The notes under the pieces: model-generated
Databases searched by the model: none
Told to the model about the DNA's origin: nothing
What the model saw: only the letters and a program-made list of their open reading frames with translations
DNA from: an uncultured delta proteobacterium
Lineage (GTDB): Bacteria; Desulfobacterota; RBG-13-43-22
NCBI GenBank assembly: GCA_963790475.1
Contig: CAWBOS010000012.1
Location: 1,408,001-1,472,000 of the forward strand
DNA length: 64,000 bases
Direction: 5' to 3'
Program-made: the position numbers and the translations under genes
Shown here: piece after piece, positions 1,836-8,106 of the stretch
How the letters are laid out: every line of letters starts with the position of its first letter
Numbering within the stretch: the stretch's first letter is position 1

Positions 1836-4800
1836 TCTCCCTCTACCACCCCGCGGTAACATTTAATTATGATTCAACTGGTGGCTATAGGGCCTTTTTT
1901 CGATTGTTAGTCATCACTATGGCCTTCAATGATTTTTTTCACTCACGCCCCTTCCTTCACACATCATCGCCGGACGAGCTGTAAAACTTTCCGTACCGAA
2001 GGGCCAGGGTCGGCAGCACGAGCAGGTTCAACATGGTCGATGTCACAAGGCCGCCGAGGATGACGAGCGCCATAGGCCCTTCGATCTCACGGCCCGGCGC
2101 GCTTGCCCCTATGGCAAGGGGCAGGAGTCCCAATGCGGTGACAAGAGCGGTCATCAGGATGGGCGCGAGCCGCTCCGAAGCCCCCCTGATCGCCGCATCC
2201 GCCCCCCAATCCATCCCCTCGACCGAAACCAGGTGTTCGTAGTGGGAGATCATCATAATGGAGTTGCGGAGCGTGATGCCGAAGAGCGTGACGAAACCGA
2301 CGAGGGAGCCGATGGAGAGGGCGCCCCCGGAGATGAAGGCGGCGAGCACTCCGCCTACCAATGCAAAGGGAAGGTTGGCGAGCACCAGGAACAGATTCCT
2401 CACATTACCCATGACTATCGACAAAAGGAGGATGATTCCTGCTCCAGCCAATAGGGAGTGGACCATGAGGTCCCGCCGGGAGCGGGCCTGGGCCGCAGCC
2501 GTGCCGCTAAATTCGACATAGGTCCCCGGGGGGAAGGAGATATCCGAGGCGATCCTTTTTCTTGCATCGGCGGCGAAGGTGTTGACGTCCCGGCCCGTTA
2601 CATTACAGGTGATCGCCTGCACCCGTCTGGCCGCGTTGTGAAGGACCACGTAGCGGCCCGAAGTCTCGTAGACGTCGGCGATTTGCTTCAGGCTTACATA
2701 AACGCCCGCGGCACTGCGGAGGGGCAGGTCTCCCACCTGGGTGACGTTCCTGCGCACCCGCGCGTCGAGGATCACCGACACGTCGAAAACCCGGTTCCCT
2801 TCGTAGGTCTGGCCCACAGTAGCACCCTGGTATGCGGTCCGGACCGCGTCGAGCACGCCCACGGCGGCAAAGCCCCACCGGGCGAGGTCCTCCTTTCTGA
2901 GCCTCACTACTATGCGCGGTGCGCCGGGGGGCGACTGTACCTGGACATCCGCCGCGCCGGGAATTTTCCCGAGGACCCTGGCCGCTTCATGTGCCTTCCG
3001 GTCGAGGGTGTCAAGATCGTTGCCGTAGATGTTGACCACCACTGACGCCGAGTAGCCGGAGATGGTCTCCTCGACCCGTTCGGTGAGGAAGGTATTGACG
3101 GCGAAGTTGACGCCGGGGAAACCGGCCAAGGCTTTTCGTATCTCAGCCTGGGCCAGCTCCGACTCCTCCCCCTGAAGAGGCTTGAGGTCCACCTCGAACT
3201 CGCTGTAGTGGGTGCCTAAGACGTCGTCGCCCTCTTCCGCCCTTCCGGCCCGCTGGGCCACCGAGCGGACATAGGGGACCTTCAGAAGCTCGATCGTCAC
3301 CAAGCGGCCCAGACGCAGCGACTCCTCGAGCGACGTGCCGGGGACCGCGGACATGTGGACGATAAAATGCCCCTCTTTCAGCTCCGGCAGAAAATCGCCT
3401 CCGAAGAACGGGAGAGGGGCAAGTCCGGCCAGGGTGAAGAGCGCCGCCCCGATTATAACGGCCCGTGGATGGCGTTCGACGGAGGCAAGCAGCGAGCGAT
3501 ACCGCTCCTTGAGCCAACGGACCACCGGCGGCTCCTTCTCCGGCAGCTCCCGGTTGCCGAGAAGGACGAGACACAGCACGGGGGTTATGGTCAGGGCCAC
3601 CAGCAGGGAGGCGAGGGTGGCCAGGATATAGGCGACGCCGAGGGGCGCAAACAGTCGTCCGGCCAACCCGGACATGGTGAGAACCGGAATAAATACCAGG
3701 GCCACGGCAAAGGTGGCGTAAACCACGGCCCCCCGGACCTCGAGGGATGCGTCGAAAACGACTGCCGGCGCCGGCCGCGGCTGCGCAAGAAGGCGGTTCT
3801 CCCGAAGCCGGCGAAGAATATTCTCCACGTCGATGATGGCATCGTCCACCACCATGCCGACTGCGATCGCAAGCCCTCCAAGGGTCATGGTATTGAGGCT
3901 GTGCCCCAGGTACTCCAGGACCGTCACCGCCGCCAGGAGGGAGAGGGGGATCGCCGCACAGGAAATGGCCGCGGTGCGCAGGTTGAAAAGAAAGAGGAAG
4001 AGGACGATTATCACCAGTGCCGCGCCGATAAGGAGCGACGATCTCACATTTTGGGTCGCTGTCCGGATGAAGTCGGCGGGACGGAAGATGTCGCCGTGAA
4101 GTTCCGCGCCCTGCACCTTCAGTGTGGGGCGGAGCTCGGTCAGGGCCTGCTCGACCCGCTCCGTCACTTCCTGGGTGTTGGCGCCGTACTGCTCGGAGAT
4201 GACCAGTTGCACCCCCGGTTTACCCATGATCGCCGCGGCGCCGATGGGAGGCTCCGGCGCATCGACCACCTTGGCTATATCCCCAAGGGTGACGTTGGCG
4301 CCGTTCTGGTGAAGGAGCACGGACCGGGACAACTCCGAAGGAATGAGCGACTGCCCCTCGCTCTGGAGGACAAGACGTTGGTTCTCGTTGTCGATGAAAC
4401 CGGCTCCCCGTACCCCCGTGGCCCGCCGCGCCGCTGCCAGAACATCGTCGATGGACAGGTTGTAGCGGACCAGTTCTTCGGGGCGGAACTGGACCTGAAG
4501 CTGGCGGACATCGCCGCCGAAGACCGCCACTTTGGCGACGCCCGGTACCGCCAGGAGGCGCTGCCTGACCGTCCAGTCGGCCATGGTCCTGAGTTCCATC
4601 AAAGAAAGCTTAGGGGAGGTAAGCCCTACCGCCAGCACCACGCTCGTGGACGAGGTGAGAGGGGTGATCGCCGGCGCCTGGACCCCTTGCGGGAGACGCC
4701 CCGACAGGGTCGAGAGGCCCTCGGCCACCAGTTGCCGGTTGAGATAGATGTTACTCCCCGGACTGAAGGTAACGGTGACGACCGATAACCCCTGGATCGT

Positions 4801-4919
4801 GCCGGAACGGAGCGTCTCAATCCCCGCTACCCCGTTGACCGCGTTCTCCACCGGCTGGGTCACGAGCATTTCCACCTGCTCCGGGGAAAGGCCCGGCGCC
4901 TCCGTCTAAATCACCACCT

Positions 4920-5440
4920 ATAATTGTGCCATATGGCATTGAATGGTAAAATGATGATCATGATTGGTAAAGGAGTTAAGTCTACCCAGGCGAAGAAATC
5001 CAAGCCACGGGTTAGACCGAAATCCGTTTTTCAACCTCAAGGGGAGGACCGGCATGATCAACAACTCAGCACTCCAAAAATGGGATCGACTGGCCCAGAA
5101 ACAATTGGATCGACAGTTCATGAATGAAATCATCCAAGGTCTGCAATGCTCGCCTTTCGAAGCCGGTGCCATCCTGGACACCGTCTACAAAGTGTATCGA
5201 CCTTATTTTGAAACCAGTGGCACGCTTAAGCCAGGGCAATTACTCTTTCAGGTAATTGCGGTGGAAGCGTCCCCGAATAAACCTTTAGCTCAGGGCCGAC
5301 AAGTGACCGTAACGCTGACTCTCGATTCCGGTCCGGAGGACCTGAAGATCCGAAAGCAAAAAGGGATCATCGGACTCAGGCAGCACCGACTCCAGCGGGT
5401 TTGTCACGAAGCCTTCCAACAAGGAGGCTTGTTGACCCCA
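4920..5440 (+). mobile_element. 521-bp insertion carrying a truncated DUF1670-like gene
   Basis: Removing 4920-5440 restores RND codons ccg ccc cag gtg gtg att (P P Q V V I). The insert is lower in GC than its flanks and there is no target-site duplication. Confidence 0.75.
5054..5437 (+). pseudogene. DUF1670-like protein, C-terminally truncated
   Basis: RBS ggggagg precedes ATG 5054. Sequence 'LKPGQ...VTVTLTL...GLRQHRLQRVCHEAFQQGGLLT' resembles DUF1670 proteins and breaks off before the expected HTH. Confidence 0.6.
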
Positions 5441-5593
5441 GGGGCGGGGCGAATTCGGGGAATACGTCGTATTTGGCCTTGGTGAGGGAATAGACGCCGA
5501 AGCCCGCCAGCAGAAAGGTCAGGGCGATCACCACCCCACGGAAGCGGAGCGAAAAACGGACGATGGCGGAGAGTATCCCGGAAGAGCGGCCGT

Positions 5594-6664
5594 TCATTTG
5601 TCGCCGCCTTCCTCTCCTACCTGAATCTGGGAGCGGAACTCCTCGGACTGTAAGAGCTGCGCGCCCTTCACCACGACCTTGTCGCCTGGAGAAAATCCGC
5701 CGGCCACAAACCACCCTTCCCTTATCGGTGTTTCAGTCGGAATCTCGCGCCGCACAAAGCGGCCACTTCCCTTTTCCAGATAGACCCACGCCTTTCCCTG
5801 CCACCAGACTGCGGCCCGAGAAGGCACTATCACACCCGTCCGTGAGGGGCCCACCGGGACAAAGGCCAGTACGTTCATACCGGGGACGAGATGGGGGTGC
5901 GCAGGGGCAAGGTAGAAAAAGCTCTTCCCCTGGATGCGGGGGTCGGTCCTCGGTGAGGGCGAAACCAGCCCCACTGTGACGAGGGGTGTTCCTTCGCCGG
6001 ACTGCACCCGGATCGTAGGTGCCCCTGCGTCAGCGCCCACGTCCGGGGGAAAGGTGATCTGGAGGAGAACATCTTCTTGTCGTATCAGCCGTTCGAAGGC
6101 GGGAGAATCGTCAATCAGCCACCTGGAAATAACCCCGCCCCACTGCTGCCGCAGGCTCCCTGCCAGAGCGCTCAGGGAAACCTTCGCCGACTCCATGGCA
6201 GCGGCATCGGCCCGCCAGACGGCCTCAGCCGACTGGAGGACCTTGTCGGAGATGTTCCTGTTGTCTGCGTTGAGGGGCTTCAGGCGCTCGTACTCCCTGC
6301 GCGAGGCCTCAAGGGCCGCCTCTCCCTTTTCCATCAGCGACTTTGCCGTGGCATAAGAGCCGCTGGAGTCGAAGAGGCCCTGGAGTTGGAGTGCCGTGCC
6401 GGCGGCGCGAATCTCCCGCCGATGGGAGGCCGCAGCCAGAGGTAGGACGACGATCCCGGACTTCTCCAGGGTTTTTCCGTCAAGACTTACGACGATTTCC
6501 CCTTCCGCCGTGGAGACGCGAGACGGGGCCTTTATCGGAAGCTCCCGCTCCTGCTCGAGGGCCCCTTCCTTCCGGGACGTCTGAAAAGCCCAGACGAGGA
6601 GTCCGGCAAGTGCGGCCAGGACAATAATGGCGACGACCATTTTTATGACACTCTTTTTTCTCAC
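5594..6664 (-). CDS. RND efflux periplasmic adaptor (membrane fusion protein)
   Basis: N-terminal TM, coiled coil, PGM...VPSRAAVW and GDKVVVKGAQLL motifs. Lies between the TolC and RND genes. Confidence 0.85.
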   Translation of the reverse strand: MRKKSVIKMVVAIIVLAALAGLLVWAFQTSRKEGALEQERELPIKAPSRVSTAEGEIVVSLDGKTLEKSGIVVLPLAAASHRREIRAAGTALQLQGLFDSSGSYATAKSLMEKGEAALEASRREYERLKPLNADNRNISDKVLQSAEAVWRADAAAMESAKVSLSALAGSLRQQWGGVISRWLIDDSPAFERLIRQEDVLLQITFPPDVGADAGAPTIRVQSGEGTPLVTVGLVSPSPRTDPRIQGKSFFYLAPAHPHLVPGMNVLAFVPVGPSRTGVIVPSRAAVWWQGKAWVYLEKGSGRFVRREIPTETPIREGWFVAGGFSPGDKVVVKGAQLLQSEEFRSQIQVGEEGGDK

Positions 6665-8106
6665 CTGGTCTTCTCCTTTTCTGACCGTGGGTTTGTCTCG
6701 ACGTCTACCGCCGGCAAGGGCTCATCGAGGGGACGCTGAAGCGCGTCCTCCAGAATACGGCGCGCCAGCAGCACCTGAGAAAACACGTCAAAACGTGCGA
6801 GGGTGGCGGTCTGCGCTTCAAACATCGTGCTCGTGAGCGCCAGCCGGTCCGCCTCTCCGGCCTTAAACAGCGCTTCCGAGGACGCTTGTCGGGATTGCTG
6901 AATAGAGAGCAGGCGGTCCGCCGCCTTCAGCTTATCTATGACAGCGCGGTAGCTTGCGACGGCCTGCTCAATCGCACCGATAACACGGGCCTGGAGGGCA
7001 ATGAAACGGGCCGTCGCTTCTTTGCGGCCTGCCTCGGCCTCGGCAATAGGACCCTGATTTTGATTAAAGATAGGGATCGTCAGGGAAAAACCGACTGACC
7101 ACTTGTTATCCCCTTGGTCCCACTGGTAGCCGGGGCCGAGATGGAGGTCGGGGTACTGTTTGGCGATTTCCAGTTGGAGGGCTGCCTGAGCGGCTTCGTA
7201 GTCTGCCAGGGCGGCCAGGATGTCCGGCCGGGCGGTGAGCGCCTGTCGCCGCATGTCCGCTGCGGGAGGGGAAGGAGGTACCTCTTCGACAGAGGCGAAG
7301 GAGATGCCCGCCCCTTGGATTGCCGCTTGGGTCACGCCGAGCGCGGAGGCCAGACCGGCGAAGGCCTCGGCCTCCTGTCTCCCCGTCTCCCACAGGAGAA
7401 GGCGGGTTTGCTCAGCCGCGACGTGCGCCTGAGTGACGTCCGGGAGGGAGACTTCGCCTGAAGCCAGCCTCGCTTCCAGGAGCGTGACAATCTCCCTTTG
7501 AAGGGCTTCTTGCCGCTGCAACAGGGCCTGGTTATGTCTCGCCGTGTAAAGATCGAAGAACTTGGTCGCGAGTCGGCTCCGCACACCCCATGCGGCGACA
7601 GCGATATTCAGACGGGCGGCTTCAGAGATGGCCTGTGCCTTCGTTATGCGGTAACCGCGTTTACCGGCGGTTTCAATCGGTATATCGAGGTTGAAAGTCA
7701 GGGTCCAGGGTGAGATCCCGCTCGCCGAATTGGTGTTAAACTGCGGGGCAAATCCGAAAGAGGGGTTTGGCCGCTGCCCAGCCGTAATCCTCCCGGCTTC
7801 GGCAACACCCCACGCGGCCCGGGCCGCATCCAGATCAGGGTGGTAGTAAAAGGCCGCCAGGGTGAGGCGCCGAAAATCCCACGAATCGAGAGGCCATGGC
7901 ACCAATTCACGGCCGAGGTTTGCCTCCAAGAATTTTTTCAATCCGAGGCTATCAAGGGTGCGGGCCTCAAAGCCCGCCGCAGTCCGGGCGGATTCCAGCG
8001 GTTTTGCCTTATAGCTCGCACAGCCGAACAGCGCGGCTACGAGGGCGGCTACTACAAATATCGTTCTCAAGCTGCCCGGAAAGAATGCCTTGGATTGTCG
8101 ATCCAT
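6661..8106 (-). CDS. TolC-family outer membrane efflux lipoprotein
   Basis: Lipobox LFGC, HPDL, RPDI and QYPDLHLG...LTIPIFNQNQG motifs of CzcC/TolC proteins. Confidence 0.88.
   Translation of the reverse strand: MDRQSKAFFPGSLRTIFVVAALVAALFGCASYKAKPLESARTAAGFEARTLDSLGLKKFLEANLGRELVPWPLDSWDFRRLTLAAFYYHPDLDAARAAWGVAEAGRITAGQRPNPSFGFAPQFNTNSASGISPWTLTFNLDIPIETAGKRGYRITKAQAISEAARLNIAVAAWGVRSRLATKFFDLYTARHNQALLQRQEALQREIVTLLEARLASGEVSLPDVTQAHVAAEQTRLLLWETGRQEAEAFAGLASALGVTQAAIQGAGISFASVEEVPPSPPAADMRRQALTARPDILAALADYEAAQAALQLEIAKQYPDLHLGPGYQWDQGDNKWSVGFSLTIPIFNQNQGPIAEAEAGRKEATARFIALQARVIGAIEQAVASYRAVIDKLKAADRLLSIQQSRQASSEALFKAGEADRLALTSTMFEAQTATLARFDVFSQVLLARRILEDALQRPLDEPLPAVDVETNPRSEKEKTR

Follow-up and report, generated by a model that had tools for sequence, protein, structure and literature searches.

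A truncated DUF1670 element in a czcA-like efflux gene points to an apparently undescribed type of insertion sequence

The stretch of DNA analysed here, referred to as the window, comprises 64,000 nucleotides of contig CAWBOS010000012.1 (assembly GCA_963790475.1) from an uncultured delta proteobacterium, and carries at positions 4920-5440 an insert that interrupts a CzcA-type permease gene of the resistance-nodulation-division (RND) class. Sequence comparison identifies this insert as the left 30% of an element of ~1726 bp that is native to the genome and built around genes of the DUF1670 family (PF07900). The window copy is very probably dead and right-truncated, having been deleted after it landed in the czcA-like gene, and the element family apparently constitutes an undescribed type of insertion sequence (IS), with a structural target and no known enzyme.

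A search of the genome itself located insert bases 1-519 at 100% identity at two further places, C10:1634302 and C6:754432. These long copies, one of them complete, share 1713 nt with 3 differences and stand at unrelated loci, so that copies 99.8-100% identical are present on three contigs, with a solo right end in addition. The mobile DUF1670-based element that a preliminary description of the window had proposed is therefore borne out. In having near-identical copies that share defined ends at unrelated places, the element shows the generic mark of an IS, and the same ends recur in 31 full relatives. Within the window, the insert is composed of the following parts:

4920..4938, forward strand: true left end of the element, consisting of the tip ATAATTG and the perfect palindrome TGCCATATGGCA (4927-4938), identical in both long copies of the genome.
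4939..5053, forward strand: leader with a folded stretch (fold z-score -2.4) and the ribosome-binding site GGAGG (5043-5047).
5054..5438, forward strand: opening 128 codons of DUF1670 gene A (47% of the gene), which match element bases 135-519 at 100% identity.
5432..5438, forward strand: TTGACCC, with which the element sequence breaks off; this 7-mer has one further occurrence in the element, directly before the right-end palindrome.
5439..5440, forward strand: CA, neither host gene nor element interior; the long copies read TG there.

The GGAGG motif lies six bases ahead of the ATG at 5054. In a hidden Markov model search, the open reading frame (ORF) that starts there matched Pfam DUF1670 with 45 bits (E 1.1e-11), above the gathering cut-off of 25 bits, and it departs from the family sequence after ...QQGGLLT; the composition first read from the letters, a palindromic start, a ribosome-binding site and a DUF1670 ORF cut at GGLLT, is thereby confirmed. 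The same description had treated both junctions as element ends and the final ...CCA as element sequence. The left junction is indeed the true left end, but the right one is a breakpoint at element base 519 followed by two odd bases, and because full copies have TG at that place, CA is not element sequence; its C could derive from the final position of the right end (…ATAAC). The truncated gene A frame continues for 15 codons in RND antisense (…PGAGRIRGIRRIWPW) up to a stop at 5483-5485, and a chimeric 143-aa product would be possible, given an active leader promoter.

The interrupted gene and its operon occupy the reverse strand on both sides of the insert:

1957..4919, reverse strand: downstream (C-terminal) part of the RND permease, CzcA-type, open for 972 codons from 4875, with its stop at 1957.
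4906..4908, reverse strand: in-frame TAG where homologues have Gln (VVI*TE vs VVIQTE), 11 nt from the left junction.
5441..5597, reverse strand: start of the RND gene from its ATG at 5597, comprising 52 codons and one extra base.
5597..8106, reverse strand: rest of the three-gene efflux operon, an ORF of 356 aa that matches nothing in Pfam, followed by an OEP outer-membrane factor.

The RND frame reads MNGRSS...YDVFPEFAPP down to 5442, followed by the single base 5441, and continues beyond the insert from 4919 with (Q)VVI*TEAPGLSPEQ. The downstream part of the gene aligns with positions 57-1016 of the 1021 in the Pfam profile ACR_tran (E 2.8e-225). The nearest homologues, 84% and 82% identical and one of them named Geobacter sp., both read FPEFAPPQVVIQTEAPGLSPEQ; among 119 RND homologues, the motif pattern was matched in 82 and the exact PPQVVIQT occurred in 60. 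Excision of exactly 4920-5440 (521 nt) restores the expected reading FPEFAPP-Q-VVI. Because this removal yields the sequence that the homologues predict, no host base was lost or doubled at the site, as had been noted before, and the boundaries of the insert cannot be slid because the flanking bases differ. The TAG at 4906-4908 is a second lesion of the RND gene that is absent from the earlier account.

The copy at C10:1634302 is complete and ends in CGCCATTTGGCG ATAAC, and the one at C6:754432 is missing the last 13 bases. The complete layout runs from ATAATTG and the 12-bp palindrome through a structured leader of ~115 nt and two overlapping genes to CTTGAC, the right-end palindrome and the 5-nt tip ATAAC. 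Genes A (273 aa) and B (249 aa) match DUF1670 with E 8e-47 and 5e-48 (159.9 and 163.7 bits), respectively, and are paralogues of each other (24% identity, E 2e-16); no further DUF1670 gene was found in the genome outside the element copies. The solo right end, a palindrome plus ATAAC at C10:1434290, sits inside a CCCGCC...GGCGGG hairpin beside a terminator-like stem (C10:1434278-1434320) and, judging from its sequence, is the scar of a lost copy. A different transposon sharing these ends in the genome was considered and rejected, since the 8 palindrome sites are element copies, the solo right end and chance sites.

Relatives were collected by means of the left-end motif, which gave 85 genome-contig stretches and at least 120 metagenome stretches, with 80 loci fetched. 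Tens of the genome-contig matches may be due to chance (a rough estimate for 17 fixed bases in 596 Gb), and 20 of the 80 that were examined start with another first base and appear random. Nine genome loci carry both genes at 52-75% protein identity. Among the 81 metagenome hits listed, a DUF1670 ORF follows the left end in 27 (53.6-94% identity), the contig ends within 400 nt in 28, 10 are the mini units described below and 16 are others. The left end at 4920-4938 is also identical in full-length relatives at 52-94% protein identity, these having been retrieved by the same motif. At the other side, gene B is followed in 10/10 and 21/21 full copies by a CTTGAC-like sequence, the palindrome [CT]GCCA[TA][AT]TGGC[AGT] and then xTAxC. 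A terminal T/A was tried as part of the right end and rejected, for all four bases occur at the sixth position after the palindrome; being variable among copies, the base after xTAxC belongs to the target loop.

Both ends thus carry the same 10-12-bp palindrome, GCCAWWTGGC, separated from the element boundary by 7 nt on the left and by 5 nt on the right. When the left end is compared with the reverse-complemented right end, 11-15 matches fall in 12-18 columns, mostly within the palindrome itself. The lack of terminal inverted repeats that had been read from the truncated window copy consequently does not extend to the element, because the palindrome is shared by both ends of the complete copies (31 full copies).

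The leader between left end and gene A shows signs of a conserved fold. In an alignment of 10 leaders, both sides had changed in 5 of 15 predicted pairs of a hairpin, as compensatory changes; this hairpin lies at L002:1560-1610 (alignment A3, columns 69-107), and the version of this genome is the most divergent. Against Rfam, the leader gave nothing below E 0.7, with only a miRNA match at chance level.

A recurrent short form of the element was also observed. These mini units of 24 nt consist of the left tip, one palindrome and the right tip, and under a strict pattern they account for 10 of the 81 listed metagenome hits and for at least 9 genome loci. They match the expected leftover of recombination between the two end palindromes and represent either scars of such events or a very small mobile derivative. 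Mini units occupy hairpin loops of many Desulfobacterota-type contigs; loci that carry them include L046, L022, L026, L038, L042, L051, L060, L082 and L088, as well as L116, L143, L144, L159, L168 and others.

The flanks of the copies define a target of unusual kind. According to sequence comparison, the element enters the loop of a short inverted repeat rich in guanine and cytosine (GC), in one orientation, usually after CC-T, and without target duplication. Of 56 unique genome flanks on the left side, 47 end in T and 41 in CCT, the latter compared with 1 of 20 chance-type hits; among the 81 metagenome matches listed, the left flanks comprise T in 75, CCT in 52 and TTT in 14. In 21 of the 24 unique full copies for which both flanks are available, these flanks form a perfect inverted repeat (at least 5 bp) around the insertion. 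When right flanks were dealt to other copies in 200 trials, the mean was 10.5 and the maximum 16, a control level that is high because CCGCC stems are common to many sites. The arm pairs include CCGCC/GGCGG, GTCGCGCC/GGCGCGAC, CCCCCTTT/AAAGGGGG, GCCCACC/GGTGGGC and TCCCCGC/GCGGGGA; they vary between sites yet stay complementary, and enclose a loop of 3-5 nt in which the element follows the first base or two.

The fixed-length direct duplication of DDE-type ISs is not seen. Flank identity over 3 nt was found in 0/24 full copies, over 2 nt in 2/24 and over 1 nt in 12/24, the single base always being the common T, and together with the undoubled host sequence of the window this upholds the insertion without duplication that was originally described. 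CCCGCC had been tried as a 6-7-bp target duplication and was rejected, as it is part of the right-end palindrome region in relatives and 3-nt flank identity is nil. The alignment of ends gave the hairpin-loop target with its CC-T flank, while no orthologous empty site was readable: for the C10 and C6 copies, 3 and 6 related genomes contain an orthologue of the left flank (76-85% identity), yet in none of these was the right flank matched.

The target of the window copy is divided between the two sides of the insert:

4914..4919, forward strand: left half of the RND target, CCACC and then T, with the insertion directly after T, which fits the CCT left-flank rule.
5441..5447, forward strand: right half of the RND target, GG and then GGCGG, an imperfect complement of CCACC (4/5 pairs).

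The same CCACC/GGCGG combination also flanks the mini unit in locus L022. Because the left motif is present and the arm is complementary at 4/5 positions, the hit in the RND gene is best described as off target, at a near-cognate site and with the element in its canonical orientation.

The C10 and C6 copies occupy the central CCCGCC...GGCGGG hairpin of a two-module repeat resembling repetitive extragenic palindromic (REP) sequences, which in its unoccupied form has the loops AAA, TA and others. The modules of this repeat are CCGG-YGAAAR-CCGG on the left, CCCGCC-loop-GGCGGG in the centre and a TTCCGAC-TTTC-GTCGGAA hairpin on the right. Examples are C12:679170-679260, C6:581620-581720 and the left flanks of L002 and L003 at 1440-1500; there are dozens of copies in the genome, and the repeat is present in all 13 other searched genomes of the genus.

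The window copy has lost its interior and its right part, that is, everything beyond base 519 of ~1726, which agrees with the later internal deletion suggested before. TTGACCC occurs exactly twice in the element, at 513-519 and at 1704-1710, the latter directly before the right-end palindrome, and the chance expectation for this 7-mer within the last 40 positions is 0.0024. Its presence both at the breakpoint and before the right end therefore indicates a deletion between the two 7-mers. That step alone would leave a right end of 16 nt, and since the window has CA, ~15 more bases (the palindrome) must have been lost as well. The sequence evidence thus suggests that the element landed in the look-alike site CCACC T / GG GGCGG of an acquired high-GC czcA-like gene and inactivated it, and that the copy then lost bases 520 to about 1725, most likely through deletion between the TTGACCC repeats and loss of the right-end palindrome; the RND gene would afterwards have gained its TAG. 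Left with no right end, no gene B and only half of gene A, the copy is immobile.

The truncation could instead have arisen during insertion, either because the true left end was used with an internal pseudo-end next to TTGACCC or because a broken intermediate was captured. Host sequence that is intact to the base on both sides speaks for such an origin, as does the identity of the breakpoint 7-mer with the motif that precedes the true right end, and the odd CA could be end-joining filler. Nevertheless, the internal site has no palindrome after TTGACCC, whereas true right ends have one in 10/10 and 21/21 cases, and for this reason insertion from a pseudo-end is rated below later deletion. The C6 copy, moreover, independently lost its right-end palindrome with the junction kept, so that such deletions do occur after insertion. 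Overall, truncation at insertion is considered unlikely.

Several points weigh against deletion after landing and against the description of the element on which it builds. A two-step deletion is less simple than desirable, and the A of CA fits neither the host, which has no A there, nor the right end. The conservation of the left end is partly built in, the loci having been retrieved by that motif. The absence of duplication rests on flank comparison, because no orthologous empty site was found. Lastly, the left junction is bridged by only 27 nt of read-derived sequence, and no contig of the four runs described next covers 5461-5583 or bridges the right junction 5438/5441.

Read evidence was taken from Logan contigs of four public runs, X1-X4. 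In run X1, which is probably the source sample, 76% of the sampled words are present, and the depth is 3.6-4.4. One X1 contig spans 4600-4946 without a differing letter, crosses the left junction and includes the TAG, for which it is not independent support because X1 is probably the source sample. The element contigs of the runs pass 5438 into the full-length sequence, and X2-X4 hold element sequence only. Read support hence exists for the left junction and is missing from the X1-X4 contigs for the right one; at the low depth of X1, gaps in coverage are expected.

These gaps bear on whether the 521-bp insert could be an assembly artefact, a repeat wrongly spliced into the RND gene. The genome bin has 9.7% contamination, and the unbridged right junction, the uncovered stretch and the element contigs that continue at full length past 5438 would all agree with a false join. 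The X1 contig across the left junction, with zero differences, argues to the contrary; a false join would also need shared words, and the right side shares only 7 nt. In addition, the insertion obeys the target rule and the fixed orientation of the family, which is unlike what an artefact would be expected to do. An artefact is accordingly regarded as very improbable, and a genuine, later truncated insertion is retained.

The composition of the surrounding DNA places this insertion in a sequence of events. The efflux operon (1957-8106, at ~2-8 kb of the window), with a radical-SAM gene on one side and an enolase gene on the other, forms an islet of 60-64% GC in a genome of 49% GC, and the insert itself has 46-53% GC in surroundings of 60-68%. 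The nearest relatives of the operon are Geobacter/Geomonas-like, at 82-77% identity. By its composition, the operon looks like a recent horizontal acquisition, and an islet of this kind in a genome of 46-52% GC suggests that a Geobacter-like metal-efflux operon was transferred in and was later struck by the resident element. Bin chimerism was examined as a source of the GC contrast and rejected, given that GC content is 46-52% on every one of the 20 contigs and the rise in GC is confined to ~7 kb.

Which enzyme moves the element is less evident. No conventional transposase was recognised in full copies, whose sole genes are those for the two DUF1670 proteins. A Pfam scan of both ORFs (E ≤ 1) returned DUF1670 plus weak helix-turn-helix (HTH) and minor matches only, with no Y1_Tnp, and an NCBIfam scan of both gave no match. 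Neither ORF matches a DEDD (RuvC-like) transposase in Pfam or NCBIfam, and no RNase-H-fold DDE domain appeared among the fold matches of the gene B product (ORF2) or the Pfam hits of both ORFs, a negative that would still be compatible with such a domain.

The family itself is large. ORF1 has 1526 relatives in a large protein collection, mostly on contigs whose longest member is 1-2.5 kb, as is typical of repeats that assemble alone, and for ORF2 there are 759 cluster representatives (E ≤ 0.001), whose contigs carry the labels of several bacterial phyla and Bathyarchaeia. Twelve longer relatives were scanned, 6 of which are tandem fusions of two or three DUF1670 units and 5 of which have an N-terminal extension lacking a Pfam match; the fused forms hold DUF1670 units only. 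The three-unit fusions are P0256, P0262, P0272 and P0305 (930-952 aa), and one relative, P0289 (400 aa), has a C-terminal DnaG-type CHC2 zinc ribbon. In an alignment of 89 sequences (gene B numbering), H174 and Y206 are invariant (H173 and Y204 in gene A), and R116, A121, Q124, L128, P160, D167, G169, K175, H198 and Y240 are at least 90% conserved. The conserved R116, D167, H174, K175, H198 and Y206 recall a tyrosine-recombinase-like set, a resemblance that is suggestive only.

Structure modelling covered ORF2, and its model (predicted local distance difference test, pLDDT, 87.3) shows a helical hairpin, a beta-hairpin, a winged helix and two more HTH units. Three structural results count against an enzymatic role of this protein. 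A Foldseek comparison of the model with the PDB gave no match at E ≤ 0.001. The best Z score in VIA-align was 5.9, with all matches on HTH, winged-helix, sigma-4, TrpR or resolvase-HTH parts within residues 105-248, and those with resolvases were limited to the HTH domains (Z 5.2-5.7). The N-terminal 105 residues on their own (pLDDT 75.6) matched generic helical hairpins only, with a best Z of 6.1. As no nuclease, recombinase or HUH fold was recognised in the models, catalysis is neither proven nor excluded, and the recombinase- or HUH-like mode that had been suggested in preference to a DDE one would be a conjecture.

It is nonetheless quite possible, in a judgement that comes close to evenly balanced, that the DUF1670 pair performs the chemistry. 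The proteins would bind the end palindromes and the hairpin-like target, and a conservative, site-specific-like exchange would take place between a joined right-end/left-end site and the target loop, catalysed by their own invariant His and Tyr or by a recruited host nuclease. The symmetry of the sites suggests this exchange: at the joined end, two palindromes would flank an A/T-rich spacer of ~12 nt, much as complementary arms flank the 3-5-nt loop of the target. A narrower proposal, advanced tentatively, is that the pair represents a new recombinase built of HTH modules only, with His/Tyr catalysis, hairpins recognised by shape and duplication-free insertion into loops. The His/Tyr set would then lie near the motifs G-x-x-H-D-x-G-x3-T-H-K and D-R-Y, and extruded or single-stranded hairpins would be recognised for the insertion of a circular or hairpin-ended intermediate.

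Alternatively, a hairpin-acting enzyme of the host, such as a Y1 HUH transposase of IS200/IS605 or RAYT type or a junction/hairpin nuclease, might move a non-autonomous element in which the DUF1670 proteins serve as regulators or targeting factors. The architecture is IS200/IS605-like, with subterminal palindromes, insertion 3' of a short motif, one orientation and no duplication, and a nuclease fold was not seen in the ORF2 models. The genome has 20 Y1_Tnp matches, all outside the element, and its IS200-like copies carry a CCCGCC-CTAAG-GGCGGG hairpin whose stem is the same as that of the preferred target; these matches and hairpins make mobilisation in trans a serious rival. However, none of the 8 GCCAWWTGGC-type sites in the genome is at a Y1 transposase gene, and no left end is followed by another transposase, the 7 ORFs checked behind other left ends being host genes (for a PALP enzyme, an aminotransferase, an RNase H, an FtsJ and a thioesterase) and two without a Pfam match. 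Furthermore, both end palindromes are kept in 31/31 listed full copies, and the gene pair is intact in every full copy tested by tblastn (52-94% identity) on contigs labelled as several phyla, a preservation hard to reconcile with genes dispensable for movement. Movement by a host enzyme is therefore held to be somewhat doubtful and less likely than catalysis by the DUF1670 pair. As for the Y1_Tnp matches themselves, they lie at C10:971384, C12:1227998, C10:353551 and elsewhere and include about nine near-identical copies of IS200/IS605 type, whose upstream hairpin has the same stem as the centre of the REP-like repeat, and several longer, weaker ones (frames of 289-330 aa) could be RAYT-like.

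Across genomes, the distribution of the family is scattered. DUF1670 is patchy in the phylum of the window, exceeding the cut-off in 3 genomes and reaching E ≤ 0.001 in 4 of an even sample of 201 that includes this one. A DNA query with the whole element matched 3 of 41 close relatives, this genome included, and the 40 relatives yielded only a right-end fragment of 282 nt (90% identity, G019) and a left end of 39 nt (G018). Among contigs of 11 kb or more, those with full copies bear the labels Acidobacteria, Thermodesulfovibrionales, Cloacimonadota and Pseudomonadota; the labels of shorter contigs may reflect mis-binning. A tblastn search of a plasmid collection returned no relative, and none of 167 pattern matches in viral contigs was confirmed. 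A literature search with subscription journals outside its coverage found no paper on DUF1670, and one on ISs that target REP sequences or hairpins turned up known families only.

To our knowledge, every well-studied class of bacterial IS is defined by its enzyme, be it a DDE, DEDD or HUH transposase or a serine or tyrosine recombinase. The element described here is compact and widespread, with clear ends, a hairpin-loop target, no duplication and only two DNA-binding proteins of an unstudied family. If these proteins catalyse, they would represent a new type of recombinase and possibly a tool for shape-directed insertion; if they do not, the element illustrates the hijacking of a host enzyme. 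The 24 copies with two flanks have supplied exact definitions of the ends, and the hit in the RND gene offers a natural off-target that shows a minimal target, CCNCC-T plus an imperfect complementary arm. The decay products, namely the truncated copy, the copy without its right end, the solo right end and the 24-nt mini units, show how palindromic ends break down. The order of events would also be of interest, with a Geobacter-like metal-efflux operon acquired first and then knocked out by a resident element.

Comparison with known systems underscores this combination of features. IS200/IS605 elements move by single-strand "peel and paste" with the Y1 HUH transposase TnpA. The DUF1670 element shares with them subterminal palindromes, insertion directly 3' of a short motif, fixed orientation, absence of duplication and an association with REP-like hairpins, but it encodes two DUF1670 HTH proteins only, with neither a Y1 transposase (PF01797) nor TnpB, and its target is itself a hairpin loop rather than only a motif of 4-5 nt. 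IS110/IS1111 elements, of which IS621 is an example, use a DEDD transposase together with a bridge RNA. They are similar in their one-orientation, duplication-free insertion into REP or palindromic sequences and in having a structured non-coding leader beside the left end; in contrast, the DUF1670 element has no DEDD/RuvC-like transposase, bears palindromes at its ends and has a leader without an Rfam match. There is no evidence of a reprogrammable guide, because one lineage used both CCGCC and CCACC sites.

Other ISs insert into REP sequences as well (PMC1525189), but their transposases are of known families. The present element resembles them in that two of its three copies in the genome lie inside the two-module REP-like repeat. 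A further parallel is provided by integrons, in which the attC site recombined by IntI is recognised as a folded, palindromic structure. Stems that vary between sites yet remain complementary, and a conservative exchange without duplication, are common to attC recombination and to the process proposed here, although no tyrosine-recombinase domain was detected and the DUF1670 element is a self-contained two-gene unit rather than a cassette.

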